Part shown: positions 30,614-64,000 of the stretch, piece by piece | How the letters are laid out: every line of letters begins with the position of its first letter | Numbering within the stretch: the stretch's first letter is position 1 | From: an uncultured Bacteroidales bacterium | GTDB taxonomy: Bacteria > Bacteroidota > Bacteroidia > Bacteroidales > WCHB1-69 | NCBI GenBank assembly: GCA_947167635.1 | Contig: CAMVIT010000006.1 | Coordinates: 4,172-68,171 of the forward strand | Reading direction: 5' to 3' | DNA: 64,000 nucleotides | Translations under genes and position numbers: made by a program | The notes under the pieces: model-generated | The model's database searches: none | What the model was told of the DNA's origin: nothing | The model's input: the letters and a program-made list of their open reading frames with translations, nothing else

Positions 30614-30649
30614 GGCGCGAAGATAGGATTTTTTCGGGAATTCAGAAAT

Positions 30650-31135: not shown

Positions 31136-31146
31136 GATTCATTTTT

Positions 31147-32495: not shown

Positions 32496-32512
32496 GGTGC
32501 GAAGATAGGATT
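32397..32512. repeat. Rhs 'handle' repeat, copy 2
   Basis: About 57 nt are near-identical to 33826-33884 and about 108 nt align to 30522-30630 with a scattering of substitutions. This includes 17 nt upstream of the cassette ATG. Confidence 0.85.
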
Positions 32513-32516
32513 AACA

Positions 32517-34561: not shown

Positions 34562-34653
34562 GAAAAATATTACTTGTGATTAATGATTTTCAAAAGTGGA
34601 CATAGCCGTTTTTTGCATCTCAGGACGTGGTTTGCTACCAATCACTATTTTTT

Positions 34654-34661
34654 GTACTTTT
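34654..34661 (+). promoter_or_regulatory. -7 box (TACTTTTG) for the DUF4301 gene
   Basis: aatcactattttttgTACTTTTGCtgc lies 18 nt upstream of the ATG at 34679. It is nearly the same module as at 17150-17178. Confidence 0.5.
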
Positions 34662-34678
34662 GCTGCTTCAAAAATATC

Positions 34679-36172
34679 ATGGCTATGACAGAATTCACCC
34701 CTCAGGATTTAGATTTCATGCGGCATCGCGGCAGCGACCCCGCCATTGTTGAACATCAACTCGAATGCTTTTGCAAGGGCTTCGACTTTGCCAATCTCGA
34801 CCGCGCCGCAACCCTCGACGACGGCATCCTGCGCCTCGACTCCGATGTCGTGGAAGAGCTCTGCGAGGATTATCCCCATTTGTTGGCGGGCAAGAAGGTC
34901 CTCAAGTTCGTGCCCGCATCCGGCGCCGCTTCCCGCATGTTCAAGGAGCTATTCTCCTATCTGTCCGACGATGCGCCCGCGACACAGCAAAAGGCGCTCG
35001 ACTTCTTGGATAAACTGCCCAAATTCCCCTTCTACGAGGCACTTTCCGATGCACTTGCCAAGGATGGCCACGACATGGCCGCTGAAATCCAGGCTCGCAA
35101 CTACAAGCTCATCATCCGCTATCTGCTTGAGCCGGAAGGCCTCAATTACGGCAACCAGCCCAAGGGACTCCTGCTTTTCCATCGCTATCCCGACAAGATC
35201 CGCACGGCTGTGGAGGAACATCTTGTGGAGGCGGCCCTCTATGCCTGCAATGACGGGGAATGCCATCTGCATTTCACAGTATCACCGCAACATCAGGCAG
35301 GTTTTGAAGCCCTGTTGGCCAAGATGGTCCCCCTCTATGAGCAACAATATGGCGTGAAGTATCATATCGACTTCTCCATCCAAGACCCTGCCACCGACAC
35401 CGTGGCAGCCGAACTCGACAATTCTCCCTTCCGTGATGAGAACGGAAACCTGCTCTTCCGTCCCGCCGGTCACGGCGCGCTCATCCACAACATGGACAAG
35501 CTGGATGCCGACTTGGTTTTTGTCAAGAATATCGACAATGTCATCACCGAGGAGCGCGTGGGACCCACTGTGCGCTACAAGAAAGCCCTCGCCGCGCATC
35601 TGCTCCAGCTGCAGGCCCGCACCTTCCAGTACCTCCGACTCCTTGAGGCTGGAGAGGTGGACGACATGATGCTCTGCGAAATCCTCGACTTCGCTGAAAC
35701 GGATCTGATGATTTCCCTTGGAGAGGATGTGACTCGCGAGATGCTGTACGAGAAGCTCAATCGCCCCATCCGCCTTTGCGGTATGGTCAAAAACGAGGGC
35801 GAACCCGGCGGCGGCCCGTTCTGGGTGACCAACGCCGAGGGCGAAACCTCTCTCCAAATTGTTGAATCCTCCCAGATCGACAAGAAAAACCCGGCACAGA
35901 TGGACATCATGACCCACGCCACCCATTTCAACCCCGTGGATATGGTATGCGGACTCAAGGACTACAATGGCCACCGCTTCGACCTCGCCCGCTATGTGGA
36001 CCCAGACACAGGCTTCATCTCCTCCAAGTCGTATGGCGACCGCACCCTTAAGGCTCTGGAACTTCCCGGACTCTGGAACGGTGCCATGAGCCGCTGGATC
36101 ACCATCTTTGTGGAAGTGCCCATCGAGACCTTTAACCCTGTCAAGACAGTGTTCGATTTGTTGAGAAGATAG
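34679..36172 (+). CDS. DUF4301-family protein (nucleotidyltransferase-like)
   Basis: Starts MAMTEFTPQDLDFMRHRGS. KFVPASGAASRMFK motif. The family call is from memory. Confidence 0.75.
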   Translation: MAMTEFTPQDLDFMRHRGSDPAIVEHQLECFCKGFDFANLDRAATLDDGILRLDSDVVEELCEDYPHLLAGKKVLKFVPASGAASRMFKELFSYLSDDAPATQQKALDFLDKLPKFPFYEALSDALAKDGHDMAAEIQARNYKLIIRYLLEPEGLNYGNQPKGLLLFHRYPDKIRTAVEEHLVEAALYACNDGECHLHFTVSPQHQAGFEALLAKMVPLYEQQYGVKYHIDFSIQDPATDTVAAELDNSPFRDENGNLLFRPAGHGALIHNMDKLDADLVFVKNIDNVITEERVGPTVRYKKALAAHLLQLQARTFQYLRLLEAGEVDDMMLCEILDFAETDLMISLGEDVTREMLYEKLNRPIRLCGMVKNEGEPGGGPFWVTNAEGETSLQIVESSQIDKKNPAQMDIMTHATHFNPVDMVCGLKDYNGHRFDLARYVDPDTGFISSKSYGDRTLKALELPGLWNGAMSRWITIFVEVPIETFNPVKTVFDLLRR

Positions 36173-45100: not shown

Positions 45101-48100
45101 TGGCAAATGGCCGTGTCGGCCGTCAGGGTGATGCTCGGCAGCGGGTTGACGGCCAAGGAGGTGCTGGTCGATGCGGTACAGCCGTAACTGTTGAAAACCG
45201 TCACCGTGTAGAGACCGCTCTGGCTGACGTTGATGCTGCTGCTGGTGAGACCGTTGCTCCATTGGTAGGAGCTTCCACCCAACGCGGTGAGCACCGCGGT
45301 GCCGCCTTGGCAAATTTCACTCGGCCCGTTCAGATAAGGCGTGGGATTTCCTTGGACGTTAATGGTGGTGCTGGCCGTGTTGGTACATCCGTTCTCGTCA
45401 GTGACCAATACGGTATAAACGCTCGTGTTGGTGGGCGTGACAGTGATAAGCTGCCCCTGTTGTCCCGACATCGGCCAGGTGTATTGTATGCCTGTGGAAG
45501 AAAGAGCGAAAAGGGAGACGCTCTCGCCATTGCAAATGTTGTTGTTGGCATTGATGGTGACCTCCGGCAGCGGATTCACGATGACAGTTTCCGACGTGGT
45601 GGCCGAGCATCCTTGGGCATTGGTGACAGTGACAAAATAGGTGCCCGTCTGGGTGGCGGAGAGGAATGCGTTGGTGGTACCGTCGCTCCAAATATAGCTG
45701 TTGCCACCGTTGGCGCGCAAAATGGCTGTCCTGCCTTGGCATACCGTGGTCGTGCCCGTGATAGAGGGTGTTGGAGAGGGCATCTCGCTCACATTGGCGG
45801 AGATGGCGTTGGTGCAGCCTAAGGAGTTGGTGACACTGACCGAGTAGGTGCCGGGCGTGTAAATGTCCAACGAACTGGCCGTGCTGCCGTCATTCCAATG
45901 ATAAGTGTAAGTCTCGTTGCCAGTGACACTCAGGGTGGTGTGACCGCCTTGGCAGAAGTTACGGGCACCCACGATCTGCGCGCTGACTTGCCAAAGTGTG
46001 ATTTGCTTGCTGGCAGAAGAGATGCAACCGTTGGCATCGGTGCCGGTGACAGAATAGGTGTTGGCGTAGGTCGTGGTAATGGACGGGGTCGTTTCCCCCG
46101 TGCTCCAAGAGTAGTTGACAGCTCCGGAAGCGGTCAGCGTGGTGGACTCGCCCTGACAGAACGGCGTGCGACCGTTGATGGCGACATTGGGCAAGGCGTT
46201 CACGATGAGCGTCTTGGTGGCTGTGTTGCGACAATTGTGGGCATCGGTCACCGTGACAGTGTAGGAGTTCTCCGTGTTGACTGTGATGCGGTCGTTGGTG
46301 GAGTTGGTGGACCATGCATAGCTGGTACCGCCCGTAGCAATCCAAGTGCAGCTGTTGCCTTGGCAAACCGCGTCTGGACCTGTGATGGTGGCAACGGGCA
46401 ACTCATGGACAACAACGGTCACATTGCCCTCGCGCTGACATTCATGGACGGTGTATGCAGTGACATGGTATGTGGTGGTCGCAGTGGGATATACCGTGAT
46501 GGAAGCCTCCGTGCTGGCGTTGTCCCATAGATAATGATCGGCACCGGAAACCGTGATGGTCGCGCTGGCGCCTTTGCAGATGGCCTGCGTGTTAGACAGG
46601 TGCATCGTGGGCAGCGGGGCTGACAAGACGGTAAAGGATGCGGTGCCTCGACAATTGTGCTGGTCGGTGACCGTGACACGGTAGGTGTTGGCCGCATTGA
46701 TGGTGATGACTTGGCTGTTGGCACCGTTGTTCCACGAATAGGCAGCGTATGGGCCGCTTGCTGTCAATTGCGCGCTGCTGCCTACACATAAGTGCTGCGA
46801 ACCCGTGATGGCCGGTATGGGATTGGAATGGACGGTGAGACGGTAGTAAAAAATCGAGTCGCATCCCGTGACACGGGAGGTGGTGGAAAATGAGTACGAG
46901 CCGGCACCATTCACTGTGACGCCAAAAGCAGTGGTGTACGGCAACTGCGAAGCGCAAATCTCCTCCCGAATCGTGTCGGTGTTGTAGATGATGGGCCAGA
47001 TGGTCAGATGGATGGGCACGATGCTGTCGCACCCGTTCACGGTCGTCAGACGAATCTCGTGCGTTCCGGGCGTCGTGAAAGACTGCCCTGCATAATCAAA
47101 CGGCAAGTTGTACTCGCATGTGGTGAAATAGAGTGTGTCGTCTTGGTAAACAGGGTAGTGACGCAGGTTTACGGTAATCAAGCTGTCGCAACCTGCCGTG
47201 CTTTGCAGCAGAATGTCGTAAATGCCGGGCTCTGTGAGGATGGAGTCCCCGACAGCGAAGGTCTCGCTTTCGCAAATGGCAATATCGAGACTGTCATGAT
47301 ACACGGGCAGCGTGGTCACGACGAGGTGACGCAGCGTGTCGCACCCGAAAGTGACGGTGTCCGGCAGCACAAGGTCGTACTCGCCGACCTCTGAAATCAA
47401 GGTGTCTCTGTATTGGAATGGAATCATGTTTTCGCACACGGCCATCGCGATAGTGTCCTGCGGCACGTCGCGTACAATGACATACAATGCGTTGCAGGTA
47501 CTGTCACACCCGAATGTGGTCTGGTGTGGCTCGTAATAGGTCCCGGCATGGTTGATAACGGTGTCCCTGTATGTGTACGGCAAATCGTATTGGCACAAGA
47601 CCAGCGTGTCAACCAGCGTGTCGGTGTATGCCTCCCAAACGTTCAACACGAGGGTGATGTTGCTGTCACAGTGCTGAATGGTCGTTCCGAAGAAGGTGTA
47701 TGTGACTGAGCTGGTGAAAGCTGTGTCGGCAAACACGTATGGCGTATCCGTTGCGCAGATGTCCGCTGTGATGGTGTCGTTGTACGAAGGCGTGGCTTGC
47801 ACAATGAGCATGGCCATGCCTGTGCATGGAATGGAGTCGCCACTCTCCAAATAGTAGATGCCCGGCTCCTCGAAAGTGCGTGCGGAATCAACGGCGATGG
47901 GAAAGTCGTTTTCACAAAAAGTGTAATACGTTGTGTCGTAAGTGGTCGGCAACACAGTGAGCTCCAGATGGATAATGATGCTGTCGCATCCGAATGCGGA
48001 ATTCAGGGCGAAGTCGTAAACGCCCGGTTCGTAGAAACTGCTGTCGCCGACGACATAAGGCAAATAATGTGAGCAGACGGTCTCGATGAGCGTATCAACC

Positions 48101-48678
48101 TCTTCATATTCAGGATAAATATTGAGACTGAGGAAAAAGACGCTGTCGCACCCGTTTTCGGATGAATATGTGTACTCGTACCAACCGGATTCTGTCAGCG
48201 TGTCGCCCTGAAACAGATATGGGGATTCCGAGGCGCATAGAGTGGCAAATGTCGTGTCGAAATAGACCGGTAGCTGTTCAACCACGAAATAGTGGAAAAT
48301 ATCGCACCCGTTCGAGTCTTGGGCAACAGAGATCATTTGGCTTGTCGCCTCCGAAAATGTGAGGTCTTCGTATTCCAATGGAAATTTGTTTGCACAATCC
48401 TTCAGGTTGATTGTGTCAATCTGTGATTGGAAGACGGAAACCCACCGGAAGGAGCTGTCTCGGCCGTCGGTTGTCTGCAAGGTGATGGCGTATTCGCCAG
48501 GAGCCGTGATCTCTTCCCCGAGATACTCCATGGGGAATCCTGTGGCACATACGATCTGGTATGTGGTGTCAACAGTCAGGGAATCTGTGCCAGGTGATGC
48601 TTGCAATGTGTTGTGAAAGAGCAAGTTGAAAATCATTGCGAGAAATGTTGCCGTGGCAATGCGGTAAATGTTTTTCAT
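42130..48678 (-). CDS. giant (2182 aa) cell-surface repeat protein with a T9SS type A C-terminal sorting domain
   Basis: Signal peptide. About 9 N-terminal ~75-aa modules end in GCDS. 19 Ig-like modules are marked by Y-x-W-[SN]-x-G. The C-terminus IRIYPVPTHDVLNIDL...GQYFVRFLN...VVVNR matches a Por secretion tail. Confidence 0.85.
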   Translation of the reverse strand: MKNIYRIATATFLAMIFNLLFHNTLQASPGTDSLTVDTTYQIVCATGFPMEYLGEEITAPGEYAITLQTTDGRDSSFRWVSVFQSQIDTINLKDCANKFPLEYEDLTFSEATSQMISVAQDSNGCDIFHYFVVEQLPVYFDTTFATLCASESPYLFQGDTLTESGWYEYTYSSENGCDSVFFLSLNIYPEYEEVDTLIETVCSHYLPYVVGDSSFYEPGVYDFALNSAFGCDSIIIHLELTVLPTTYDTTYYTFCENDFPIAVDSARTFEEPGIYYLESGDSIPCTGMAMLIVQATPSYNDTITADICATDTPYVFADTAFTSSVTYTFFGTTIQHCDSNITLVLNVWEAYTDTLVDTLVLCQYDLPYTYRDTVINHAGTYYEPHQTTFGCDSTCNALYVIVRDVPQDTIAMAVCENMIPFQYRDTLISEVGEYDLVLPDTVTFGCDTLRHLVVTTLPVYHDSLDIAICESETFAVGDSILTEPGIYDILLQSTAGCDSLITVNLRHYPVYQDDTLYFTTCEYNLPFDYAGQSFTTPGTHEIRLTTVNGCDSIVPIHLTIWPIIYNTDTIREEICASQLPYTTAFGVTVNGAGSYSFSTTSRVTGCDSIFYYRLTVHSNPIPAITGSQHLCVGSSAQLTASGPYAAYSWNNGANSQVITINAANTYRVTVTDQHNCRGTASFTVLSAPLPTMHLSNTQAICKGASATITVSGADHYLWDNASTEASITVYPTATTTYHVTAYTVHECQREGNVTVVVHELPVATITGPDAVCQGNSCTWIATGGTSYAWSTNSTNDRITVNTENSYTVTVTDAHNCRNTATKTLIVNALPNVAINGRTPFCQGESTTLTASGAVNYSWSTGETTPSITTTYANTYSVTGTDANGCISSASKQITLWQVSAQIVGARNFCQGGHTTLSVTGNETYTYHWNDGSTASSLDIYTPGTYSVSVTNSLGCTNAISANVSEMPSPTPSITGTTTVCQGRTAILRANGGNSYIWSDGTTNAFLSATQTGTYFVTVTNAQGCSATTSETVIVNPLPEVTINANNNICNGESVSLFALSSTGIQYTWPMSGQQGQLITVTPTNTSVYTVLVTDENGCTNTASTTINVQGNPTPYLNGPSEICQGGTAVLTALGGSSYQWSNGLTSSSINVSQSGLYTVTVFNSYGCTASTSTSLAVNPLPSITLTADTAICQGESVLLTAIAPAGCSYIWSTGSTQNQISVNSTGTYQVSATNANGCTSTRSVHVTVHPRPQISISGSTAFCDGGSTILTANNEAGSNYVWSTGVSNAPATISAPGTYTVTATNSHGCTQTASTTVTMYSLPNAAILGAGTICANAATTLYVNNSSHYAWSTGDTTHTITVAPAISTAYSVTVTDEHGCQNFSSAVVSISSTVTVSISGELSFCQGGSTQLTASPGYSYLWSNNATTPSITVTQPGIYKVTASNTLGCSAVDSVLVTVNPLPVLHFGMQHSICAGQSYTYQLPNNELTYHWSTGATGNQLTVSAQGIYTVTATNSHGCQTTARDSLIVSPLPTPSIVGNTTVCRGSSIILTATGGLVYQWSNGSVGADVALFPNNNNTYTVTATNEYGCSATASTYVTVNSLPTINFIGNTTFCEGSSTTIAASGATSYLWSTGATTNTITVNLPGTYSVRALNAFGCSRSDSITITQAQSPNIYINGDNLVCANTLHTLTATGAASYVWSTGENTPSISILPTSTTTYEVSGTDANGCVSSVSKVVNVEPQPNVLISGDNTICMGDSVVFTATGGQYYLWSTGSTSDHITVSVSGNYTVTAMSANGCTAATSAELHINPSPIAQISGPNTLCNNSTTQLVARGGTSYLWSNGSIDSVITISMGGNYTVTATNPYGCISTASMQVTSLEAPFVFLNSVSSVCQGGSSNILSYSNAQSYLWNTGETTQNITVTPTASTTYIVTATHENGCVTSDSIRITVLPTFTQTFTDNICQGSTYSLHGFQLPAQTVAGTFTFTNNLQSHQGCDSTIILNLTVNPIPVLPATISGNEHLTNYGNFIYDVDSTLYATNYEWRVSNTNWTIIGGDQSSILLTVNVNGSGLLTAKAINSCGSAERSLAILCNVGVEEYTNETQIRIYPVPTHDVLNIDLSETVLDITQIHLVDALGRTLQTLTVTDSHIQLDCSTLAAGQYFVRFLNQDSKTVDTRKVVVNR
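43040..46840 (-). repeat. 19 tandem coding repeats of about 225 nt (Ig-like modules) inside the giant gene
   Basis: The recurring pattern C.G....L.A.G...Y.WS.G.T...I.V...G.Y.VT.T...GC was counted 19 times in the translation. Confidence 0.8.
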
Positions 48679-48842
48679 GATATGAAATTTGTTTTTATAC
48701 TCAATAATAATTATTATTCTCTATAATGAAAAAAGGGTGCAAATGTACATAAATTACGAATACAAACGGCAAAATGAATTCACAGGAATGTTGCGTGCGA
48801 AGTCTCTGTTTTTTTTGCCGACAAAAGAAGCGATATTTTGTG

Positions 48843-48850
48843 TAATTTTG
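48843..48850 (+). promoter_or_regulatory. -7 box (TAATTTTG)
   Basis: TAATTTTGCGCCC lies 18 nt upstream of the ATG at 48868 and downstream of the ORF-track start at 48838. Confidence 0.45.
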
Positions 48851-48867
48851 CGCCCTCTTTTAGTCCG

Positions 48868-49830
48868 ATGTTATACCTGCTGAATAAAAACACGACCTTG
48901 CAATTGATCATCTCCGCCTTTTTGCTGGCATGGAGCGGTTTCTGCATGTTCACTGGACTTTCTGTCGCGCCTCCTGACGGACATCCCTTGCTGTATGGAG
49001 CTATATATCCGTTTTTGAGCCAGCATCTTGTTTTCAGCAGAGCCCTTGCCATGGCCTTGCTGGTCCTTGAGGCTGTCTTCTTGCAGAGATTTTTTGCCGT
49101 CAACAGATTTTCGGAGAATAAAACGGCAATGTCCATTCTCTTTTTTTGGGGAATGATGATTGTAGGACATCAGCTGACGCTTCTTTCACCCGCCAACTTC
49201 ACGATGTTTGCCTTGACGCTCATCATGTTGATTAATACCAATGTGGTCAATGATTTTCCGCTGAAAAACAGGATTTTTATCTCCGGCATTATCATTGGCG
49301 TCGCTTCTTTGTTGGACATCAATGCGTTATGGATATTGTTGTTCTTGATTTTCGCCATTCTTACCAATAGGTTCTCTCGGATGAAAGATGTGATCATTCT
49401 TCTCTCAGGACTTCTCTTTGTCGCAGTGTATCTGTTCACCTATGGCTATCTGACAGACATGCTGCCGCAGTTGCTGGCCTCTTACAAGAAGGTTGATTTC
49501 TTCGGATTCATCGAACATGCGCGGGAGATGAGGGTGATAGACTGGGTCTCCACCGCTATGTTGTTGGCGACCAGCATTTACATGATTGTGGTCTTGAAAC
49601 TCTATTACGACAACAAGCTGATTGTGCTGCGCAATCGGTTTATGACGACGGTCTTTCTATGGTTGACGATGTTAGTTGCCGGATTCTTCTCCTGCTATGA
49701 CATGCAGGGTGGGCGCGTCTATATCTTTGTGCCGGTGGTGTTGTTATACAGCATGTTGTGTTTGGTCAAGAGTCGGCGGATTTTCCACGATATACTGATT
49801 GTCGCCATGTTTGTGTTGCTATGGTTTTAA
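48868..49830 (+). CDS. multi-pass membrane protein of unknown function
   Basis: About 320 aa with 8 or more hydrophobic segments. Start placed at MLYLLNKN. Confidence 0.65.
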   Translation: MLYLLNKNTTLQLIISAFLLAWSGFCMFTGLSVAPPDGHPLLYGAIYPFLSQHLVFSRALAMALLVLEAVFLQRFFAVNRFSENKTAMSILFFWGMMIVGHQLTLLSPANFTMFALTLIMLINTNVVNDFPLKNRIFISGIIIGVASLLDINALWILLFLIFAILTNRFSRMKDVIILLSGLLFVAVYLFTYGYLTDMLPQLLASYKKVDFFGFIEHAREMRVIDWVSTAMLLATSIYMIVVLKLYYDNKLIVLRNRFMTTVFLWLTMLVAGFFSCYDMQGGRVYIFVPVVLLYSMLCLVKSRRIFHDILIVAMFVLLWF

Positions 49831-50423
49831 AATCCCACTTTTCGGACACGCCTTGCGTCGAGTGCGGGTGCGATGAAGCCGGACGCGGCTGTCTGGCGGG
49901 TCCTGTTTGTGCCGCCGCCGTGATATTTCCATACGATTATGTGAATGATGAAATTAACGATTCCAAGCAACTGACGGCTAATCAGCGTGACAAATTGCGT
50001 GCCATCATCGAACGCGACGCGCTGGCTTACTGCGTGGTCGAGGTGTCAGAAAAGCGTATTGACGAGATCAACATCCTCAACGCCTCCATACAGGGCATGA
50101 ACGATGCGGTGGAGGGACTTTCCCTCCAACCGGAGTTTCTCCTGATTGACGGCAATCGTTTCAAAGACCGCTTGGGTATCCCGTACAAGTGTGTGGTCAA
50201 GGGCGATGCGACATATCTCTCCATCGCGGCGGCCTCTATCTTGGCCAAGACCCACCGCGATGCGCTGATGTCCCGCCTTGATGCCGAGTTCCCCGTGTAT
50301 GGTTGGAAAAAGAACAAAGGCTATCCCACACCCGAGCATGTCGCCGCTGTGATGCAACACGGCCTCACTCCTTACCATCGCCGCAGTTTCCACTTGAAAA
50401 ACCAGCTCAGTTTGGAATTTTGA
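49821..50423 (+). CDS. rnhB: ribonuclease HII
   Basis: CGCDEAGRGCLAGPV and DSKQL motifs. Start set at MVLKSHF, overlapping the upstream gene by 10 nt. Confidence 0.9.
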   Translation: MVLKSHFSDTPCVECGCDEAGRGCLAGPVCAAAVIFPYDYVNDEINDSKQLTANQRDKLRAIIERDALAYCVVEVSEKRIDEINILNASIQGMNDAVEGLSLQPEFLLIDGNRFKDRLGIPYKCVVKGDATYLSIAAASILAKTHRDALMSRLDAEFPVYGWKKNKGYPTPEHVAAVMQHGLTPYHRRSFHLKNQLSLEF

Positions 50424-54105: not shown

Positions 54106-54797
54106 TACAAGATGGTTATGTTGTCAATGTAGTTTGCCAACAGGTCGGTCAGCTTTTTGTTGGTTTTGTCAAAATTCTGGACATACAACATGGGATCGCT
54201 CAATCCGAGTTGCTGGACGCTGTTCAGCGTGTAATACAGCAGGTCCACGTTTTCGATGTGGTGTGTGCGGTTGATGAGCAGAATCTCGCCTTTTTGGACG
54301 GCAAGAATGTCGGCAAAGGATTTGTTGATGGAAAGCAGCACGGAGGAGATGTGCTGCTGGTCTTGCAAGAAACGGTATAGCAGTGTGGCTTCGCTCAGGA
54401 AACGGGGCGTGCACGGCAATCCCGCCAACGTGGAGTATTCGTTCTGGGTGAGGAAATACAGCGACTTGTAGTGCCCCAAGGTGTCGCAAAAGTGCTGGCC
54501 ATACTGGGACAGGTCGAATTGTGTCTCCAGATAGGCGCGTGATTTGCTCTCATCGTATATGACATCAGGCACGAGCAGGGGCATCCTGGTGGCGATGACG
54601 ATGTCGATGGCTTGTCCGGAGTCTTGCTCCATGTTGAAAAAACGGGGCGCTTTGTCGGAGATGAGCGCGTTTTCTGCTGCAGGGTAGAATGCATCTTGGT
54701 ATTTGCCGTCGTCACGGAGGCAATAAAGCGAAAATCCATCCGGAGTGAGTCGGATGGATCTCGTATAACATTGGGTCAATAAAGAGTTCATGGCCAT
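54105..54797 (-). CDS. DUF3822-family protein
   Basis: 230 aa, translationally coupled upstream of rsmD, a conserved Bacteroidota arrangement. The family call is from memory. Confidence 0.6.
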   Translation of the reverse strand: MAMNSLLTQCYTRSIRLTPDGFSLYCLRDDGKYQDAFYPAAENALISDKAPRFFNMEQDSGQAIDIVIATRMPLLVPDVIYDESKSRAYLETQFDLSQYGQHFCDTLGHYKSLYFLTQNEYSTLAGLPCTPRFLSEATLLYRFLQDQQHISSVLLSINKSFADILAVQKGEILLINRTHHIENVDLLYYTLNSVQQLGLSDPMLYVQNFDKTNKKLTDLLANYIDNITIL

Positions 54798-55474
54798 TAT
54801 TCCCAGCTGCCGGTGGTGCTGGCCTCGGTGAGGGAGCCCATGTACATGTCGGCGTATTGGTCTCTGTATTGTTTCTCTTCGGAAAGGTTGTTGTAGAAAA
54901 TCTTGTTCCAGAGCTTGCTCAGAACACCTGAGCTCTCGGGGCTGATGCTGCGCTCCATGTTGACCAGGATGTCATCCAAGGGAACATCGATGCGATAGAC
55001 GGGAATTTCATACGTGCGGGATGCGATGGAGCCCGTCTGGATCTCATATTGCTTCTTGTCGCTGAAGGGGATGTACTGGAAATTCTTGAAGTTCTCGGCC
55101 GTCAACTTGTGGTCAATGTCGAGCATTTTCTCGATGGCGGGCACGTCCACGACCTCTTTGTGGATGAGGCCGAGCTTGAAGGCCTGGGCCTCGCTCATGG
55201 TGTCGGGGAAGTTACCGACGTTTTTCTCAATCTGCACGGTTCCGTTGTTGACAAAATCAACGAGACTGTCCATGGAGGAAGCATATTTTTTGTAAACGGT
55301 CTTGTAAATGGCCTGGGCGCTTCGGATGGTCGTGAGGTTCGTGACGTTGGCAGACTTGCGGAGTTCGTACACTTGTCTGAATTTTTCGGGACGCATGATG
55401 CTTCGAGCAGCGAAAATGGCTAAGACCAAAGCTGCAAGGATCAGGATAACGGTGAAAATCTTTCTAGTTTTCAT
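54797..55474 (-). CDS. membrane-anchored hypothetical protein
   Basis: 225 aa with a single N-terminal TM segment. 1-nt overlap with the downstream gene. Confidence 0.6.
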   Translation of the reverse strand: MKTRKIFTVILILAALVLAIFAARSIMRPEKFRQVYELRKSANVTNLTTIRSAQAIYKTVYKKYASSMDSLVDFVNNGTVQIEKNVGNFPDTMSEAQAFKLGLIHKEVVDVPAIEKMLDIDHKLTAENFKNFQYIPFSDKKQYEIQTGSIASRTYEIPVYRIDVPLDDILVNMERSISPESSGVLSKLWNKIFYNNLSEEKQYRDQYADMYMGSLTEASTTGSWE

Positions 55475-57138: not shown

Positions 57139-57708
57139 TTGGCGATGGAAGGATGGACCCTCTTCATGGATCGCGACGGCGTGGTGAATGTGCAGATTGT
57201 GGATGGCTATGTGCTGCGCCCCGAACAATTCACCTATACGCCCCATTTCTTGGAGGCGATGCGACTGGTGCGCCCCCGCTTCCAACACATCATCCTTGTC
57301 ACCAACCAGCAATGCGTGGGCAAGGGTCTCTGCTCCCAGGAAGACATTGATGCGATTCATGGCCGTCTCCAAGGACAGCTTGAGGTGCAGGGAACCCCTT
57401 TCGACCGTGTTTACTGCTGCCCTCATCTGGCAGAGGATTTCTGCACATGCCGAAAACCCAACATCGGTATGTTCCTGCAGGCACTCCATGACTTTCCCGA
57501 CATAGATCCTGCACGGTCATTGATGGTGGGAGACACCCTCTCCGACATGCAGTTCGCGCGCAATGCCGGCATATATGCCATCCATGTGGGTGCTGTCCGC
57601 CATCCTGAGTTCGAGACAGTCATGGACATTGCATCCTCGCATTTCGGCTCCCTGTACGATTTCGCCCTCCATTTGGAAGATATTCTCCCCGTCTTATACA
57701 AATCCTGA
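57139..57708 (+). CDS. gmhB: HAD-IIIA phosphatase, D,D-heptose 1,7-bisphosphate phosphatase-like
   Basis: FMDRDGVVN, LVTNQ and VGDTLSD motifs. The substrate call is inferred from the family only. Confidence 0.7.
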   Translation: MAMEGWTLFMDRDGVVNVQIVDGYVLRPEQFTYTPHFLEAMRLVRPRFQHIILVTNQQCVGKGLCSQEDIDAIHGRLQGQLEVQGTPFDRVYCCPHLAEDFCTCRKPNIGMFLQALHDFPDIDPARSLMVGDTLSDMQFARNAGIYAIHVGAVRHPEFETVMDIASSHFGSLYDFALHLEDILPVLYKS

Positions 57709-58577
57709 TGTTTGTTACATATTTCTTTATATATCTGATCTGTTATCCGCTTTCACTGCTCCCGCTGCCTGTCCTTTACTTGCTTGCCGGGCCTTTATAC
57801 TTGGTGCTCAACTATGTTGTGCGCTATCGGAGGAAAGTGGTGGAGGAGAACCTGAGAAAATCCTTTCCCGAAAAAAATAGCAAGGAATTACGTCGCCTTC
57901 GCAACCGGTATTACTGGCATCTTTCCCAAATTGCGCTGGAGATGGTTAAAATGCTGACCATTTCTCGTAGGAGTCTGCAACGGCGCTATCATTGCGTGAA
58001 TCCGGAAGTGCCCAATGATTTTTTCGGACAGGGCAGAAGTGTCATCCTGATGTCCTCGCATTACAACAACTGGGAGTGGATGATTGTCTCCTTGGAAGAG
58101 ATGTTCCTGCATCACGGAATAGGTGTGGGCAAAGGCAATTCCGACAAGGTGTTTGAAAAGTTGGTGAACCGCGCCCGTACCCGCTGCGGCACACAGGTGG
58201 TTTTCGCGGACACCGTGCGCGAGACGTTCGAGGAGTACGAAACCCAACACCGTCCGGCAGCCTACATGATGCTCAGCGACCAGTCACCCAACAGCAAAAA
58301 GAAGTGCTATGTGACACAATTCCTCAATCAGAAGACAGGGGTTGTCTTCGGTGCCGAGCATTTTGCCCGGAAATATGACATTCCAGTGCTCTACTATGAG
58401 GTGATCAAAGATCGGATGGGCAAGTACCGTGTTGAAGTGCAACTCATCGCCGAACACCCCAACGACCTGCCCGAGTATGCCATCACCCAACGCTATGTGG
58501 AGCTGCTCGAACAGACCATCCGCCGGCAGCCCGCCTTCTGGCTTTGGAGCCACAGACGGTGGAAGTTCCAGTTTTAA
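57708..58577 (+). CDS. lipid A biosynthesis (LpxL/HtrB-like) lysophospholipid acyltransferase
   Basis: N-terminal TM segment. SSHYNNWEW corresponds to the HX4(D/E) acyltransferase motif. 289 aa. Confidence 0.75.
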   Translation: MFVTYFFIYLICYPLSLLPLPVLYLLAGPLYLVLNYVVRYRRKVVEENLRKSFPEKNSKELRRLRNRYYWHLSQIALEMVKMLTISRRSLQRRYHCVNPEVPNDFFGQGRSVILMSSHYNNWEWMIVSLEEMFLHHGIGVGKGNSDKVFEKLVNRARTRCGTQVVFADTVRETFEEYETQHRPAAYMMLSDQSPNSKKKCYVTQFLNQKTGVVFGAEHFARKYDIPVLYYEVIKDRMGKYRVEVQLIAEHPNDLPEYAITQRYVELLEQTIRRQPAFWLWSHRRWKFQF

Positions 58578-58750: not shown

Positions 58751-61700
58751 ATGCTGGATTCCAAAGATCATTTCCGATTTTTCAAAAAAGGTCTATTTCC
58801 CAACAAAAATGACCTGTCTGGAATTGTTTTCATTGACTTGGAAGTTGGGGCTTCGGATAAAAAAACTCACGATTTTGGAGCATTAAAAGAACCTGATGTT
58901 CCGTTTCATTCTAATTCCAAACAAGATTTTGCAGATTTCATCTCTAAATCTGAATATCTATGCGGACACAATATTATCCATCACGACCTGGCATTTCTTC
59001 ATAGCATACCTTCCATAAAGTTCAAAAAAAATATTGACACGCTCTATCTTTCCCCTCTTCTTTTCCCGCAGAAGCCGTATCATAAATTACTGAAAGATGA
59101 AAAATTACAAGCGGATGAGTTAAACAATCCGTTGAACGATTGTAGAAAAACCAGAGAATTGTTCTATGATGAGGTTGATGCGTTTCAACATTTACCAAAA
59201 GATATTCAAACTATTTACTTTACTCTTTTACGTAATGCAGAAGAGTTTGCTGGATTTTTTGATTATCTGTCATTCAACACTGCTTTTTTCGACATTGAAG
59301 CACGTATTCTCCACTCTTTTGAGAACTTAGTATGTACCCATGCTCCATTGAAAGAACTTGTCAAAAATAATCCTGTAGAATTAGCATACGCTTTAGCTTT
59401 GATCAGAACAGATGACAGGACGTCTATCACTCCTCCTTGGTTGCTTTACAACTATCCTCAAATAGAGAATGTGTTTAAATTGCTTCGTCATACTCCTTGT
59501 CGCGACAATAACTGTTCTTATTGCAAAAGCATTATGAACATTCATCTCAAATTGCAAGAGGTGTTTGAATACAATGAGTTCAGAAAGTTTGGCGGGGAAC
59601 CTATGCAGGAACAAGCAGTTCAAGCTGCTGTTGACGGTGAATCAATATTGACCATTTTCCCAACAGGTGGAGGCAAGTCACTCACATTCCAGCTTCCTGC
59701 CATCATGGCAGGCCAAGCTGTTCATGGGCTTACGGTGATCATCTCACCCTTGCAATCTCTGATGAAAGACCAAGTGGACAATTTGAATGAAAGAGGCATA
59801 CACGAGGCAGTCACCATTAATGGGTTATTGGATCCTATCAGTCGCGCAAACGCCTTTGAGCGGGTTGCTGATGGCAGTGCGGCTCTGCTTTATATATCTC
59901 CAGAAATGCTTCGCTCCCGTACCATTGAAAAATTGTTATTGGCACGCAATGTAGTTCGTTTTGTTGTGGATGAAGCCCACTGTTTTTCTGCTTGGGGTCA
60001 GGACTTCCGCGTGGATTATCTCTATATCGGCAAGTTTATCAAGAATTTGCAAGAGAAAAAGAGACTTTCAACCCCAATTCCAGTTTCCTGCTTTACAGCC
60101 ACTGCAAAGCAAAAAGTCATTTCAGACATTCGCGACTATTTCAAACGAGAAATCGGTGTAGAACTGACATTGTTCGCATCTCCTTCTGCTCGTGAGAATT
60201 TGCATTATTCAGTTATCTATGCTGAAACGGAGGAGGAAAAATACAACACCTTACGTAGCTTAATGCTTGGAAACTCATGCCCGACTATCATCTACGTGTC
60301 TCGCACTAAAAAAACACTGGAGCTGGCGAACAAATTGACCAAAGATGGTCTTCAGGCATTGCCGTTCAACGGGAAAATGGATTCCAATGATAAAATTGCC
60401 AACCAAAATGCTTTCATCGCAAATAAGGCAAGAGCGATGGTGGCCACATCCGCTTTTGGAATGGGTGTTGACAAAAAAGATGTCGGTCTTGTTGTCCATT
60501 ACGATATTTCCGATTCGTTAGAAAATTATATCCAAGAGGCAGGCCGTGCCGGACGTGATCCTAAGACAGATGCAAAGTGCTATGTACTGTATAGTGACCA
60601 CGATTTGGATAAACACTTTCTTCTTCTCAATCAAACAAAGGTGAGTATCAGCGAAATCCAGCAGGTGTGGAAGGCAGTGAAAGATTTTACCAAACAAAGA
60701 AAGTCCGTCTGCTGTTCTGCTTTAGAAATCGCCAGACAGGCTGGTTGGAATGAAGAGAGGGCAGATGTGGAAACCCGTGTCCGAACAGCCATCAATGCTT
60801 TGGAAGATGCGGGCTATGTCAGTCGAGGCAATAATGTCCCTCAAGTTTTTGCCACTGGTATTTTGGTTAGAAACATGGAAGAGGCGCGTCAACGTATTGT
60901 TCATTCCGCTTTTTTTATGAATGACAAAGACAGGGATAATGCAGTGCGAATCATTAAATCTTTGATTTCAAGTAAAAGCAGAGCCACAGCCTTGGATGAT
61001 GAAGCAGAATCTCGTGTGGACTATCTAGCTGACATGCTCGGAATGACTAAAGAATCTGTCATTAATACAGTGAATCTGATGCGTCAAGAGGGTGTCCTCG
61101 CTGACTCTCAAGACATGTCTGCTTACATTGAGCATTCTGAAAACAAGACCAAGCAGATATTGGAAAAATTTTCACGGCTGGAAAGCTTCATCCTTACCAT
61201 GTTTTCTCGCCCAGAGTCCGAATGGTCTTATAAGTCGTTAAATGAAAGAGTATTAGATAAAAATATAACTTCTTCGATCAAGGATATAAGGACCGTTTTA
61301 TATTATTTATCCATTAAATCCTATATCAAGAAAAGTAAAAAAAACTATAATGGCTTGATTTGTGTTGAATTGACCGATGATTATGATCAAATCAAACAAA
61401 AACAAGATTTGAGAAAGGAAATCTGTCGCTTTATCGTCACCTCTTTGTATAAATTGACCTCGCAGCAAGTTAATTCATCGGAGCAATGTGGAAAGATTGT
61501 GCAGTTTTCGGTCAACTCACTTCATATAGAATATTTAAAACAACAAAATCAACAATTGTTCCATCATATTGCAAACTGCCATATCGATGATGTAAAAGAT
61601 GCTTTGCTCTATTTGTCCAAAATCGGAGCCATGAAGTTGGAAGGCGGATTTCTCGTGATTTACAATGCAATGGAAATCAGAAGGCTAAAAGAAATGAAAT

Positions 61701-63622
61701 ACCGATATAAGATAGAAGATTATCGGACATTAGACGAGTTCTACAAACAGAAACGCCAACAGATACATATTGTAGGCGAATATGCCAATATGATGGTCCG
61801 AAATTATCCGGCGGCATTGCAATATGTGCAAGATTATTTCCATATGGACTATAGTCAGTTCATATCCAAATATTTTAAAGGAGATCGGTTAAAGGAGATC
61901 GATCAAAACATAACCCCTGCTAAATTTCGGGATCTTTTTGGGAATCTATCTAAACAACAAAATAGAATTATTTCAGATAAACAATCGAAGTATATTGTGG
62001 TAGCAGCCGGTCCGGGTAGTGGAAAAACGCGTGTGCTTGTTCATAAATTGGCATCTTTACTATTAATGGAGGATGTAAAGCACGATCAACTTTTAATGCT
62101 CACCTTCTCTCGAGCCGCAGCCACAGAATTTAAACAACGATTGATAAACCTTATTGGAAATGCTGCTTATTTCGTTGAAATCAAGACATTTCATGCGTTC
62201 AGTTTCGATTTGTTAGGCATAATCGGATCCTTGGAAGAATCTAAGGATGTGGTGGCACGTGCTGTACAACTCATTGAGAGTGGTGAAGCGGAACAAGGTC
62301 ACATCAACAAGACAGTGTTGGTGATTGACGAGGCTCAGGACATGGATAAGAACGAATATGCCCTTGTGAAAGCATTGATGCGCAACAACGAAGAGATGCG
62401 AGTCATTGCCGTCGGCGATGATGACCAAAACATCTATCAGTTTCGAGGATCAGATAGTCGATTCATGCAATCATTTATTGATGAGATGGGAGCTACTAAA
62501 TATGAGATGACGGAGAATTTCCGTAGTGCTCCAGCCATCGTAACCTTTGCAAATCATTTTTCACAATGGATTTCGAATCGCATGAAGACATCTCCGTGTT
62601 CTTCCATTCAGACAGAGGCTGGAACAGTTCAGATCATTCAACATGAATCAGACAATTTGGAAATCCCGTTAGTGCTCCAACTAAAACACACCTATCATTC
62701 TGAACGTGCCTGTGTTCTGACGAATACCAATGAAGAGGCTGCCCGTATCCTTGGACTTCTGACCAAAGAAGGGATTAATGCAAAGCTTATCCAAACGACA
62801 AACGGATTTCATTTCGGCAACTTGGCGGAAATTCGTTACTTCCGTAAACAAATTAAAAAAGAACGTAATACGCCTGTCATCAGCGAAGACCTTTGGAATC
62901 GTGCTAAAATGAAAACACTGGCTTGCTATGAGGGAAGCACCTGTTTGGACTTTATTCGGGAATTTTTTCGTGTTTTTGAATCAACCAATAATGCTAAATA
63001 TTGGAGTGATTTGAATGATTTTATCGTTGAATCTAATCTGGAAGACTTTTGTGGTGAAGGGAATCAGACAGTCTTTGTTTCCACTATTCACAAAGCCAAA
63101 GGACGTGAATTTGACACTGTTTATATGCTTTTAAACAAAGAAGTCGCGGATACAGACGAGAAACTTCGTAAATTGTATGTTGGCATTACTCGCGCCAAGC
63201 AGTGCCTTTATATCCATTGCAATACCTCAATTTTCAGCAAATTGAAATCGGATAATATAGCATATTTTCACGATTTAACACACTATCCATTGCCACAGGA
63301 AATCACCATGCAATTAACGATGCATGATGTAAATTTGAATTTTTTCAAAGGAAAAAAAGAGAAATTGTTAAAATTAAGGAGTGGAATGCCTCTTATCTTT
63401 GATCAAGGATATCTGTTGTTGCCCTCTGGAGACAGGGTCATTAAGCTTTCTACTGACAAAAAGAAAGAGTTACAATCATGGGTGGAAAAAGGATATTCTG
63501 TACACACTGCCAAAATAAAATACATAATAGCGTGGAAAGGCAAAGATGACCATGAAGAAACAGCCGTTTTGCTTCCTGAAATTGCACTCTGTCAAATGTC
63601 TGGGGGGTGTGCAATCTCTTGA
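58751..63622 (+). CDS. 1623-aa fusion: DnaQ-like exonuclease fold + RecQ-type SF2 helicase + UvrD/PcrA-type SF1 helicase
   Basis: Exonuclease-like region at aa 22-145 (FIDLE, GHNIIHHDLAF, NPLND). RecQ core at aa 270-620 (PTGGGKS, VVDEAHCFSAWGQDFR, TATA, QEAGRAGRD). UvrD core at aa 1065-1490 (AAGPGSGKT, VIDEAQDM, VGDDDQNIYQFRG, NFRS, TIHKAKGREFD, LYVGITRAK). Confidence 0.85.
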   Translation: MLDSKDHFRFFKKGLFPNKNDLSGIVFIDLEVGASDKKTHDFGALKEPDVPFHSNSKQDFADFISKSEYLCGHNIIHHDLAFLHSIPSIKFKKNIDTLYLSPLLFPQKPYHKLLKDEKLQADELNNPLNDCRKTRELFYDEVDAFQHLPKDIQTIYFTLLRNAEEFAGFFDYLSFNTAFFDIEARILHSFENLVCTHAPLKELVKNNPVELAYALALIRTDDRTSITPPWLLYNYPQIENVFKLLRHTPCRDNNCSYCKSIMNIHLKLQEVFEYNEFRKFGGEPMQEQAVQAAVDGESILTIFPTGGGKSLTFQLPAIMAGQAVHGLTVIISPLQSLMKDQVDNLNERGIHEAVTINGLLDPISRANAFERVADGSAALLYISPEMLRSRTIEKLLLARNVVRFVVDEAHCFSAWGQDFRVDYLYIGKFIKNLQEKKRLSTPIPVSCFTATAKQKVISDIRDYFKREIGVELTLFASPSARENLHYSVIYAETEEEKYNTLRSLMLGNSCPTIIYVSRTKKTLELANKLTKDGLQALPFNGKMDSNDKIANQNAFIANKARAMVATSAFGMGVDKKDVGLVVHYDISDSLENYIQEAGRAGRDPKTDAKCYVLYSDHDLDKHFLLLNQTKVSISEIQQVWKAVKDFTKQRKSVCCSALEIARQAGWNEERADVETRVRTAINALEDAGYVSRGNNVPQVFATGILVRNMEEARQRIVHSAFFMNDKDRDNAVRIIKSLISSKSRATALDDEAESRVDYLADMLGMTKESVINTVNLMRQEGVLADSQDMSAYIEHSENKTKQILEKFSRLESFILTMFSRPESEWSYKSLNERVLDKNITSSIKDIRTVLYYLSIKSYIKKSKKNYNGLICVELTDDYDQIKQKQDLRKEICRFIVTSLYKLTSQQVNSSEQCGKIVQFSVNSLHIEYLKQQNQQLFHHIANCHIDDVKDALLYLSKIGAMKLEGGFLVIYNAMEIRRLKEMKYRYKIEDYRTLDEFYKQKRQQIHIVGEYANMMVRNYPAALQYVQDYFHMDYSQFISKYFKGDRLKEIDQNITPAKFRDLFGNLSKQQNRIISDKQSKYIVVAAGPGSGKTRVLVHKLASLLLMEDVKHDQLLMLTFSRAAATEFKQRLINLIGNAAYFVEIKTFHAFSFDLLGIIGSLEESKDVVARAVQLIESGEAEQGHINKTVLVIDEAQDMDKNEYALVKALMRNNEEMRVIAVGDDDQNIYQFRGSDSRFMQSFIDEMGATKYEMTENFRSAPAIVTFANHFSQWISNRMKTSPCSSIQTEAGTVQIIQHESDNLEIPLVLQLKHTYHSERACVLTNTNEEAARILGLLTKEGINAKLIQTTNGFHFGNLAEIRYFRKQIKKERNTPVISEDLWNRAKMKTLACYEGSTCLDFIREFFRVFESTNNAKYWSDLNDFIVESNLEDFCGEGNQTVFVSTIHKAKGREFDTVYMLLNKEVADTDEKLRKLYVGITRAKQCLYIHCNTSIFSKLKSDNIAYFHDLTHYPLPQEITMQLTMHDVNLNFFKGKKEKLLKLRSGMPLIFDQGYLLLPSGDRVIKLSTDKKKELQSWVEKGYSVHTAKIKYIIAWKGKDDHEETAVLLPEIALCQMSGGCAIS

Positions 63623-63720: not shown

Positions 63721-64000
63721 ATGAGTTACACGCAGACATCTTATCATATTATTCTCCGTACACATAACAGTAGTCCTGCCATAACAGTAGAATTTGAGAG
63801 AGAACTGTATGCTTACATATACGGTTTTGTTAAAAATGTCAATGGTCAACTTTATCGTATTGGAGGAATGCCTGACCATCTCCATCTTTTTGTGTCGCTT
63901 CCAGCCACTCTTGCTATGTCCAAATTCGTGCAAGAGCTAAAGGTTTCTACTAGTAAATGGCTGAAAGCAAACCCTCATTTTCCACTTTTTACGGGGTGGT
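63721..64000 (+). CDS. IS200/IS605-type Y1 (HUH) transposase / RAYT-like, 5' part (runs off the window)
   Basis: ATG at 63721. MSYTQTSYHIILRTHNS...GGMPDHLHLFVSL contains the HUH motif (HLH). It is not in the ORF track because no stop is reached. Confidence 0.75.
   Translation, partial: MSYTQTSYHIILRTHNSSPAITVEFERELYAYIYGFVKNVNGQLYRIGGMPDHLHLFVSLPATLAMSKFVQELKVSTSKWLKANPHFPLFTGW

Follow-up and report, generated by a model that had tools for sequence, protein, structure and literature searches.

Fusions of helicases with nucleases are central both to DNA repair, as in WRN, RecBCD/AddAB and DinG, and to bacterial immunity, as in Gabija, Hachiman and Nhi-type proteins. RecQ helicases and those of the UvrD/PcrA/Rep group translocate 3′→5′ on DNA, and DEDD domains remove nucleotides from 3′ ends by means of two metal ions. 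The gene considered here is located in a 64,000-nucleotide stretch of DNA (the window) from an uncultured Bacteroidales bacterium of the WCHB1-69 lineage (assembly GCA_947167635.1, contig CAMVIT010000006.1, positions 4172–68,171). Its product almost certainly joins an exonuclease fold, a RecQ helicase and a UvrD helicase in one polypeptide. To our knowledge, no characterised enzyme unites a RecQ motor of superfamily 2 (SF2), a UvrD motor of superfamily 1A (SF1A) and a DEDD-fold domain in a single chain; the literature searched and the PADLOC models likewise contain no matching enzyme or named defence system, as had been supposed in an earlier reading made from the letters alone (the original prediction).

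Closest described systems

By analogy, the fusion protein would work most like WRN and firmicute DinG. Like WRN, it has a DnaQ/DEDD-fold exonuclease domain at the N-terminus and, further along the chain, a RecQ SF2 motor and winged-helix DNA-binding elements; the WRN helicase core matches amino acids (aa) 283–639 of the fusion protein with an expectation value (E) of about 1e-35. However, WRN is a DEDDy enzyme employing Tyr as the general base, where the fusion protein has Asn. WRN also contains the canonical Zn/RQC/HRDC modules and lacks a second motor, and no sequence similarity can be detected between the exonuclease domains of the two proteins. WRN is a nuclear protein of DNA repair that is inherited vertically, whereas the fusion protein is the product of a laterally moving solitary bacterial gene.

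The DinG proteins of S. aureus and B. subtilis have a 3′–5′ exonuclease fold upstream of an SF2 helicase and provide the best structural match to the N-terminal module. Their helicase, however, is XPD-like (5′–3′), and they possess neither a UvrD motor nor a winged-helix array; moreover, the dinG gene is conserved on the chromosomes of bacilli and clostridia, unlike the fusion gene. The DinG exonuclease is experimentally active (PMC12345164, PMC12525004, PMC3270479), and firmicute DinG bearing a DEDD exonuclease has been implicated in the mitigation of replication stress (PMC12525004, PMC12345164).

RecBCD and AddAB also combine two helicase motors and a nuclease in one DNA-end-processing machine; RecB and AddA are UvrD-like SF1A motors and give weak matches to the fusion protein (E 5e-8 to 7e-9). 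These enzymes, however, consist of several subunits, with motors of opposite polarity (SF1A and SF1B) and PD-(D/E)XK nucleases, whereas the fusion protein is one chain with SF2 and SF1A motors, both expected to run 3′–5′, and a DEDD-fold domain. Its scores are far under the cutoffs of the recB and addA equivalog models.

Among defence proteins, DpdF of Dpd (E 8.9e-91), PsyrT/RqlH (PsyrT, 2.7e-78) and GajB of Gabija (1.2e-47) are the best PADLOC matches to the motors, and the SF1A core of GajB is compact too. Each match, however, covers one motor only, and no defence model spans the full protein. The obligatory partners of these proteins (GajA; the dpdA–K cluster; PsyrA/RqlI) are not encoded in the window and do not recur at 65 loci of the family, so the fusion protein is not a part of Gabija, Dpd or PsyrTA.

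Architecture and integrity of the fusion gene

The fusion gene starts with ATG and encodes a protein of 1623 aa without internal stop codons. All three enzymatic modules foreseen in the original prediction are recovered by the open reading frame (ORF), by Pfam and NCBIfam profiles and by the AlphaFold fold; the motif positions given at the time all agree with the translation and with an alignment of 64 sequences. Profile searches found DEAD, Helicase_C, UvrD-helicase and UvrD_C, and neither RNase_T/DnaQ nor RQC.

A syntenic contig, L001, with 94% identical DNA and the same gene arrangement, belongs to a Bacteroidales metagenome-assembled genome (MAG) from yak omasum and contains an equally long orthologue. 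At 66 of 80 related loci, one ORF of 1400 aa or more includes both Walker A motifs, and the ORFs of at least 1550 aa among these loci range from 1577 to 1702 aa. Given the same-length orthologue and the intact loci, the single frame is no assembly artefact; the frame is uninterrupted across dozens of genomes, and a division into ordinary separate genes, raised earlier as a possible objection, is not seen. At five loci (L008, L017, L026, L042 and L070) the family gene is found in two ORFs, separated by a frameshift or stop, as a result of either pseudogenisation or MAG assembly error. An exact-protein look-up of the fusion helicase and its upstream neighbour matched no record.

The N-terminal exonuclease-like module

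The N-terminal module is probably, but not certainly, a catalytic domain of divergent DEDD fold, judging by its structural model. AlphaFold (AF2), supplied with an alignment of 43 homologous N-termini 41–56% identical to the query, yielded a confident DnaQ/DEDD fold, with a predicted local distance difference test score (pLDDT) of 87.3 and a predicted template modelling score (pTM) of 0.84. The elements are arranged in the order β1-β2-β3-α-β4-α-β5-α, followed by a helical domain. The best Foldseek match in the PDB is S. aureus DinG (8zef_A, E 1.2e-4; also 9ii8); other top matches include ExoX (4fzx), a TREX1 homologue and the exonuclease domains of family-B, phi29 and apicoplast polymerases. 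DEDD exonuclease domains are at the top of the Foldseek lists both for the PDB (E 1e-4 to 1e-2) and for a viral library (2e-5 to 6e-4); of eight matches to predicted viral structures at E ≤ 1e-3, the named ones are all polymerase-exonuclease, RNase H-like or DnaQ-like proteins. The fold is thus of the DnaQ-type, RNase H-like kind.

The active-site candidates are D29/E31, D79 and the last residue of N125-N-P-L-N-D130. In the AF2 model, D29 and E31 are located on β1 and D79 and D130 on helices, which is the placement expected of motifs ExoI–III, and all four acids of these motifs are present. The register of the DEDD motifs was set by pattern and fold, with no significant sequence alignment behind it. 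D29, E31, D79 and D130 are invariant in 64 of 64 full-length proteins from four phyla and are also kept in plasmid copies of only 29–34% identity. The fifth catalytic residue of DEDD enzymes, a His or Tyr four or five residues before the last Asp, is missing: its place is taken by N125, as the original prediction had noted in proposing a possibly divergent or inactive nuclease. This Asn is present in all 64 sequences and also in the distant copies, where the motif reads N-[ND]-P-x-x-D.

Sequence comparisons do not recognise the module. No Pfam family was found at E ≤ 10 in the window sequence or in 19 diverse members; curated exonuclease profiles, such as RNase_T and DNA_pol_A_exo1, do not match it; searches of aa 1–265 against all PDB sequences with phmmer and a family profile gave chance matches only; and an hhalign comparison with an ExoX sequence was not significant. 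Conservation of the module was assessed family-wide, since only two synonymous and seven non-synonymous changes distinguish it from the L001 copy. Its mean pairwise identity is 56%, as against 58% for the UvrD motor, and the proportion of invariant columns is 21% as against 18%.

A loop comprising P109-Y110-H111-x-L-x-K115-x-x-K118 (window positions 59,075–59,104) is invariant and is modelled with low confidence. The Y110-H111 pair could supply the missing general base, or the loop could contact DNA or another domain.

The cysteine-bearing domain, the motors and the linker

The helical domain following the exonuclease-like module carries C195, C250, C255 and C258, invariant in 64 of 64 sequences. 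The H-x2-C-x4-C-x2-C knuckle proposed earlier is not sustained, the His at position 247 being variable (Asn 31, His 13, Gly 10 and Ser 6 among the 64); to judge from residue conservation, a putative metal site is more likely Cys4, with the distant C195 included, than His-Cys3. The four Cys are absent from the Aliarcobacter plasmid homologue and present in the Cereibacter homologue.

The RecQ motor contains motif 0, a Walker A motif (P304..K309-S310), DEAH (407–410) and motif VI (QEAGRAGRD, 595–603). Pfam matches cover aa 284–456 (DEAD, E 1.2e-29) and 496–602 (Helicase_C, E 7e-20), and the recQ_fam model TIGR00614 scores 256.6 bits over a cutoff of 219.8. Taken together with the invariance of the motifs, these matches confirm the complete SF2 core read in the original prediction. 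The bacterial RecQ equivalog TIGR01389, in contrast, falls short of its cutoff of 640 bits, reaching 298, and is matched over model positions 5–382 of 591 only. The nearest solved relatives (RECQ5, E. coli and D. radiodurans RecQ, BLM, RECQ1 and WRN) correspond to the core alone. The sequence after motif VI lacks a four-Cys Zn subdomain; Pfam finds neither RQC nor HRDC in the full-length protein, and the PDB RecQ matches end with the core. By these sequence comparisons the motor is a RecQ-family member at the domain level and not a RecQ orthologue.

The linker between the motors, predicted earlier to hold winged-helix or DNA-binding domains, looks in the AF2 model (pLDDT 78.7, pTM 0.49) like about four winged-helix units of helix-helix-helix-strand-strand topology, at approximately aa 652–699, 756–793, 823–874 and 915–978, followed by a helical bundle at 988–1063. 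A weak Pfam HTH_Crp_2 match at aa 758–784 agrees with this. The best Foldseek matches are to tandem winged-helix proteins (RPC62, MecI/MarR/PadR and ORC), none of them significant (E ≥ 7e-3). In homology searches, the linker sequence is confined to this helicase family.

The UvrD motor contains GPGSGKT (1087–1093, with motif I K1092), DEAQD, GDDDQ and VGITRAK; motifs IV–VI are present. From aa 1067 it is matched by Pfam UvrD-helicase (PF00580; E 3.4e-32, 112.7 bits against a cutoff of 23) and AAA_19 (E 2e-25). UvrD_C (PF13361; E 1.4e-19, 71.1 bits against a cutoff of 25.6) and UvrD_C_2 (PF13538; E 1e-11, 44.5 bits) follow, the UvrD_C domains extending to aa 1490. Motifs Q and I–VI and the UvrD-helicase and UvrD_C profiles are thus all found, as is characteristic of SF1A. 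The core is complete and is followed by a small C-terminal domain, as had been predicted. Among solved structures, the closest relatives of this core are those of PcrA, UvrD, UvrD1, Rep and the compact GajB. The scores against equivalog models, given in bits with the cutoff, are low: pcrA 130/911, uvrD 116/1144, rep 95/951, helD 51/419 and recB 72/696. The profiles therefore point to a UvrD-like SF1A member at the domain level, which is not an orthologue of UvrD, PcrA, Rep or RecB. The C-terminal tail (about the last 130 aa) has no Pfam or PDB match and is the least conserved module, with a mean pairwise identity of 38%.

Family, constraint and distribution

The fusion protein is not the one-off that it first seemed. 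At least 120 full-length relatives, each of about 1600 aa, are 61–74% identical to it; where they are named, the only name is ‘RecQ family ATP-dependent DNA helicase’, and a large family is thus already present under a generic label. The N-terminal module alone retrieves 1154 clusters (at the 50% identity level) at E ≤ 1e-3. All complete proteins among the top 150 of these clusters are 1566–1745 aa long, and the shorter entries look like fragments.

Species-representative genomes contain at least 576 confirmed stretches. Their hosts include Bacteroidota (Bacteroidales, Flavobacteriales and Cytophagales), Bacillota (Clostridia, Oscillospiraceae, Ruminococcus, Christensenellaceae, Erysipelotrichaceae and Desulfosporosinus), Kiritimatiellae, Opitutales and Spirochaetia; the architecture of about 1600 aa is present across hundreds of genomes in at least six phyla. 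The family gene is also carried by 27 plasmids, 13 of them predicted to be mobilisable or conjugative, and by none of the phage records. Among the hosts of these plasmids are Bacteroides, Phocaeicola, Aliarcobacter, Thiothrix, Sulfitobacter, Cereibacter, Croceicoccus, Rhizobium, Paracoccus, Microvirga and Nostoc. The two Bacteroidales records classed as ‘plasmid’ resemble fragments of a chromosome, and a Sulfurospirillum match extends over just 71% of the probe and lacks annotation as a RecQ-family helicase. The distant plasmid copies keep the entire architecture.

The residues invariant in 64 proteins from four phyla comprise D29, E31, D79, Y110, H111, N125, N126, D130 and the four Cys, together with the helicase motifs GGGKS, DEAH, QExGRAGR, GPGSGKT, DEAQD and GDDDQ. 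Most invariant positions are retained in the proteobacterial and Campylobacterota plasmid copies (29–34% identity). The overall ratio of non-synonymous to synonymous substitution rates (dN/dS) between the fusion gene and its L001 orthologue is 0.19; this value and the invariant motifs indicate that all modules are under strong purifying selection.

Over the full length, the identity of the fusion protein is 61% with a copy from Kiritimatiellae and 60.5% with one from Anaerotruncus, but only 50–57% with copies from Bacteroides, Phocaeicola and Prevotella. Identity across phyla above that within the phylum is incompatible with vertical descent. The family is uncharacterised and its genes are solitary, widespread and spreading horizontally among bacteria of the gut, the rumen and the environment, and on plasmids; that the fusion gene is accessory and laterally transferred is very probable.

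The locus as a variable site

Features of the fusion gene and its flanks are listed in Table 1.

Table 1. Coordinates of the fusion gene, its modules and adjoining features in the window.
Feature	Position	Strand	Evidence
Lipid-A acyltransferase gene	57708..58577		Pfam Lip_A_acyltrans; homology to gene-free relatives ends at its stop codon
Upstream junction of the acquired AT-rich segment	58578..58750	.	blastn of L001 against L088 and L091; GC profile
Exonuclease-like/RecQ/winged-helix/UvrD fusion gene, complete, stop codon included	58751..63622	+	ORF list; full-length homologues; same-length L001 orthologue
Divergent DnaQ/DEDD-fold 3′–5′ exonuclease-like domain (predicted), aa 24–150	58820..59200	+	AF2 model, Foldseek, residue invariance
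Helical domain with four invariant Cys, putative Cys4 metal site, aa 151–262	59201..59536	+	Model secondary structure, residue counts
RecQ-family SF2 helicase core and helical hairpin, aa 263–650	59537..60700	+	Pfam, TIGR00614, PDB relatives, motif invariance
Linker, about four winged-helix-like units and helical bundle, aa 651–1063	60701..61939	+	AF2, Foldseek, weak Pfam
Compact UvrD/PcrA-type SF1A helicase core, aa 1064–1495	61940..63235	+	Pfam, PDB relatives, motif invariance
C-terminal tail, aa 1496–1623	63236..63619	+	Conservation; no Pfam or PDB match
IS200-like Y1 (HUH) transposase, first 93 codons, cut by the window end	63721..64000	+	Pfam Y1_Tnp, E 7e-17

The G+C content (GC) of the fusion gene is 0.396, compared with 0.523 in the rest of the window, and is 12.7 points below that of its flanks. 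Within the family, the gene is more than 3 points under its flanks at 25 of 57 loci and above them at 3 of 57. According to Pfam, the neighbours in the window encode a lipid-A acyltransferase, a HAD phosphatase, HPPK, dNK and the Y1 transposase.

The search for an empty site covered 80 metagenome loci with relatives of the upstream lipid-A acyltransferase (55–89% identity). The helicase is beside the acyltransferase at none of the 80, and an exact 30-mer search of the metagenomes for the empty site gave zero matches. At the closest loci (L088, L089 and L091), one flank still consists of the HAD-phosphatase and acyltransferase genes and the other of an α-L-fucosidase gene, the latter at 78–91% identity; in blastn comparisons, homology with L001 breaks off precisely at the stop codon of the acyltransferase gene and picks up again 35 nt ahead of the fucosidase start. 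Between these flanks, the window/L001 arrangement has 5979 bp containing the helicase and the Y1 transposase, L091 (8873–10,636) has 1764 bp with a solitary NqrA-like gene (446 aa), and L088 (8873–13,073) has 4201 bp with the NqrA-like gene and another AT-rich cassette. Three cargoes between the same flanks identify the helicase as alternative cargo at a variable hotspot. The gene is the cargo of an AT-rich replacement of about 6 kb at a variable chromosomal site.

The acquired AT-rich patch beside a Y1 transposase, described in the original prediction, is therefore real: the GC difference, the Y1_Tnp match and the clean junctions all agree with it. The transposase was likewise correctly recognised as a neighbour, but its association with the helicase is limited to this lineage and is not a property of the family. 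As a general mobiliser of the helicase it was rejected, being beside the family gene in this lineage only and lacking terminal repeats or hairpins; no repeats or hairpins bounding the helicase island were found in this genome. A complete, 149-aa copy of the transposase is encoded in L001 (14,972–15,421), where the AT-rich patch ends just past it. GC-rich palindromes resembling repetitive extragenic palindromes (REP) follow its stop codon in L001 (15,425–15,545), and the protein may be a RAYT-type domesticated transposase.

A syntenic core gene with a housekeeping role, which the original prediction had named as the outcome that would speak against acquisition, is not what was found: synteny is absent across the family, identities are incongruent with phylogeny and none of the 80 acyltransferase loci has the helicase. 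This candidate explanation was rejected.

Several other features of the region were observed. The AT-rich cassette of L088 is 2.2 kb in size, with a GC of 0.30–0.39, four small ORFs and 223-bp direct repeats (10,307–10,527 and 12,749–12,971). Downstream of the fucosidase gene is a block of repeats that the related contigs have in common, with units of about 80–340 nt that are 75–95% identical to one another (L001 18,140–18,542, L088 15,380–16,867 and L091 14,213–14,530). Other AT-rich patches of the window, at about 29,000–35,000, 12,000–14,000 and 48,000–50,000, have a GC of 0.41–0.47 against a mean of about 0.52 and may be acquired. Upstream, within the housekeeping block, two conserved hypothetical genes are located at 54,108–54,797 (−) and 54,800–55,474 (−); one encodes a DUF3822 protein and the other has no Pfam match.

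Gene neighbourhood

No recurrent partner gene was found across the 65 loci by clustering or by Pfam and PADLOC censuses, and a conserved partner gene or operon was rejected on the clustering and on the censuses at positions ±1 and ±2/3. Among 119 immediate neighbours, the commonest families by Pfam and PADLOC are Fic/SoFic and ResIII/DEAD helicases (four each); type I restriction, type IV restriction, HNH and NERD proteins are found twice each, and AbiEii-like, adenylate kinase, NUDIX and radical-SAM proteins are also seen. The 140 neighbours at ±2/3 include ABC transporters foremost. Toxin–antitoxin (TA), insertion sequence (IS) and WYL genes are located near plasmid copies, and group II intron genes near some copies. 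In B. finegoldii, genes for a single-stranded DNA-binding protein (SSB) and small hypothetical proteins are downstream of the family gene.

On the Aliarcobacter cibarius plasmid pACIB (L082), the family gene (11,117–15,916) is divergent beside parA-parB and replication initiator/DnaB-like genes and is upstream of the gene for a coupling protein of a type IV secretion system (T4SS); this is the copy in which the Cys4 cluster is lost.

Possible function and alternative explanations

The proposed mechanism follows from the order of the modules. The winged-helix array would anchor duplex or junction DNA, both motors would hydrolyse ATP and unwind or pump the DNA, and the N-terminal domain would bind two metal ions and trim the released 3′ end. 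The net activity would be unwinding coupled to resection at accessible 3′ ends, nicks or forks. Speculatively, if the motors share one polarity and run on antiparallel strands, the distance between them would grow, and they could enlarge a bubble or work on two arms of a fork or junction. In the cell, the protein would perform an accessory genome-conflict function, restricting or competing with plasmids and other invading or aberrantly replicating DNA.

The chances of helicase-plus-3′-exonuclease biochemistry are about even. The fuller proposal, a helicase with two ATP-driven motors that acts on foreign or aberrant DNA and resects its 3′ ends, stands slightly below that, and a defence-like role, taken separately, is put forward tentatively. 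The distribution, lateral transfer, hotspot site and plasmid carriage argue against housekeeping repair and fit a conflict-type function, although only modestly. Further hints of a defence-like role come from DpdF/PsyrT and GajB as the best PADLOC models of the two motors, from the Fic/SoFic, restriction, HNH, NERD and AbiEii-like proteins encoded next to some copies, from the TA, IS and WYL genes near plasmid copies and from the five split copies; the surroundings of the family gene have some character of defence and of mobile elements. A stricter version, in which the protein is a self-contained single-protein anti-invader system with an SF2 and an SF1A motor of like polarity working opposite strands or arms of a DNA junction, opening or reeling in foreign DNA as a ‘DEDD-N’ exonuclease destroys its 3′ ends, is rather doubtful.

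Several observations weigh against resection of foreign DNA. The 3′→5′ direction predicted for both motors is assumed from family membership. The absence of the canonical His/Tyr makes the predicted nuclease activity uncertain, and neither the Pfam nor the PDB searches found a sequence profile linking the N-terminal domain to known exonucleases. The literature searched contains no characterised family member. An identity of at least 50% across phyla, sustained over 1600 aa, is higher than is usual for an immune gene, which recent transfer could explain. All-against-all clustering of 406 neighbours gave no family present at more than 10 loci, the largest cluster being an ABC-F ATPase at variable positions. 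The top PADLOC family at ±2/3, mad3 (eight members), probably consists of generic ABC-ATPase matches, since the same neighbour set includes seven members of Pfam ABC_tran. Most neighbours within ±3 are ordinary chromosomal genes, such as those for ABC transporters, gyrB and adenylate kinase, and the association with defence islands, in raw neighbour counts only, is at best modest. Of the two properties that the original prediction proposed to survey in the homologues, phyletic patchiness was confirmed, together with lateral transfer; the sign of a link to defence islands in these counts is weak, only a minority of the neighbours being of defence type.

The best-surviving alternative, though somewhat unlikely, is an accessory enzyme of DNA repair or replication restart: a bacterial WRN analogue with a UvrD-type anti-recombinase or protein-stripping motor, whose substrates would be stalled or regressed forks, gaps and recombination intermediates of the host or the carrying plasmid. 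The closest characterised relatives of the modules (RecQ/RECQ5/BLM/WRN, PcrA/UvrD/Rep and the DinG exonuclease) serve genome maintenance, and all modules are very strongly conserved. The link of firmicute DinG to relief of replication stress (PMC12525004, PMC12345164) points the same way, as do the housekeeping genes that make up most neighbours and the position of the pACIB copy adjoining parAB and rep. Core repair genes, however, do not typically combine a patchy, phylogeny-incongruent distribution with a variable site, low GC and lack of synteny. The protein is also not a RecQ or UvrD orthologue, with equivalog scores far under the cutoffs, and the canonical RecQ Zn/RQC/HRDC modules for recognition of repair-type substrates were not detected in it.

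It is unlikely that the N-terminal DEDD-like fold is a pseudo-nuclease, serving as a 3′-end or nucleotide binder or as a regulatory or sensor domain of a protein that is purely a dual helicase/translocase. Such a protein might, for example, displace proteins or remodel DNA, and would fit either biological role. Asn replaces the catalytic His/Tyr in every member examined, no exonuclease sequence profile recognises the domain, and the Foldseek list includes the non-catalytic EXO-like domains of Exuperantia (5l80) and Egalitarian (9rw0). Nevertheless, invariance of four metal-ligand carboxylates across phyla is unusual for dead DEDD folds; these residues are on the expected elements (ExoI on β1, ExoII and ExoIII on helices), and the invariant Y110-H111 of the nearby loop could replace the general base.

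A role in the service of mobile elements, as a factor of establishment, replication or anti-defence for plasmids or integrative and conjugative elements, with the chromosomal copies being remnants of decayed elements, is quite improbable. The 27 plasmids, nearly half of which are predicted to be mobilisable or conjugative, would be explained by it, together with the parAB/rep genes and T4SS coupling protein beside the pACIB copy, the SSB and small hypothetical genes in B. finegoldii and the IS, TA and group II intron genes near some copies. The chromosomal copies, however, are mostly solitary amid ordinary genes; the common families of neighbours do not include integrase, relaxase or conjugation genes; and the island here has no boundary repeats, its sole nearby mobile gene being the small Y1 transposase that is not associated with the family elsewhere.

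Merging of separate exonuclease, recQ and uvrD genes by sequencing or assembly error, to which the five split loci might point, can be dismissed with near certainty, given the uninterrupted frame of about 1600 aa shared by 66 of 80 independent loci, by finished plasmid records of other phyla and by L001, and given that the linker and N-terminal module are never found outside this architecture.

Significance

The architecture is real, unusual and widespread, and was previously annotated only generically. It is fixed and strongly constrained, and has passed repeatedly between the phyla that predominate in the gut and rumen. The presence of an invariant Asn where a catalytic His/Tyr is usual poses a clean enzymological question about DEDD nucleases. 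If the anti-invader reading with SF2 and SF1A motors of the same polarity is true, the protein would represent a dual-superfamily motor arrangement without characterised precedent. If it is a repair enzyme, it would be the bacterial equivalent of a WRN to which a second motor has been added, and the cooperation of two helicases could readily be studied in it. If it restricts plasmids or phages, the family would constitute a common, so far unrecognised barrier to gene flow in microbiomes.

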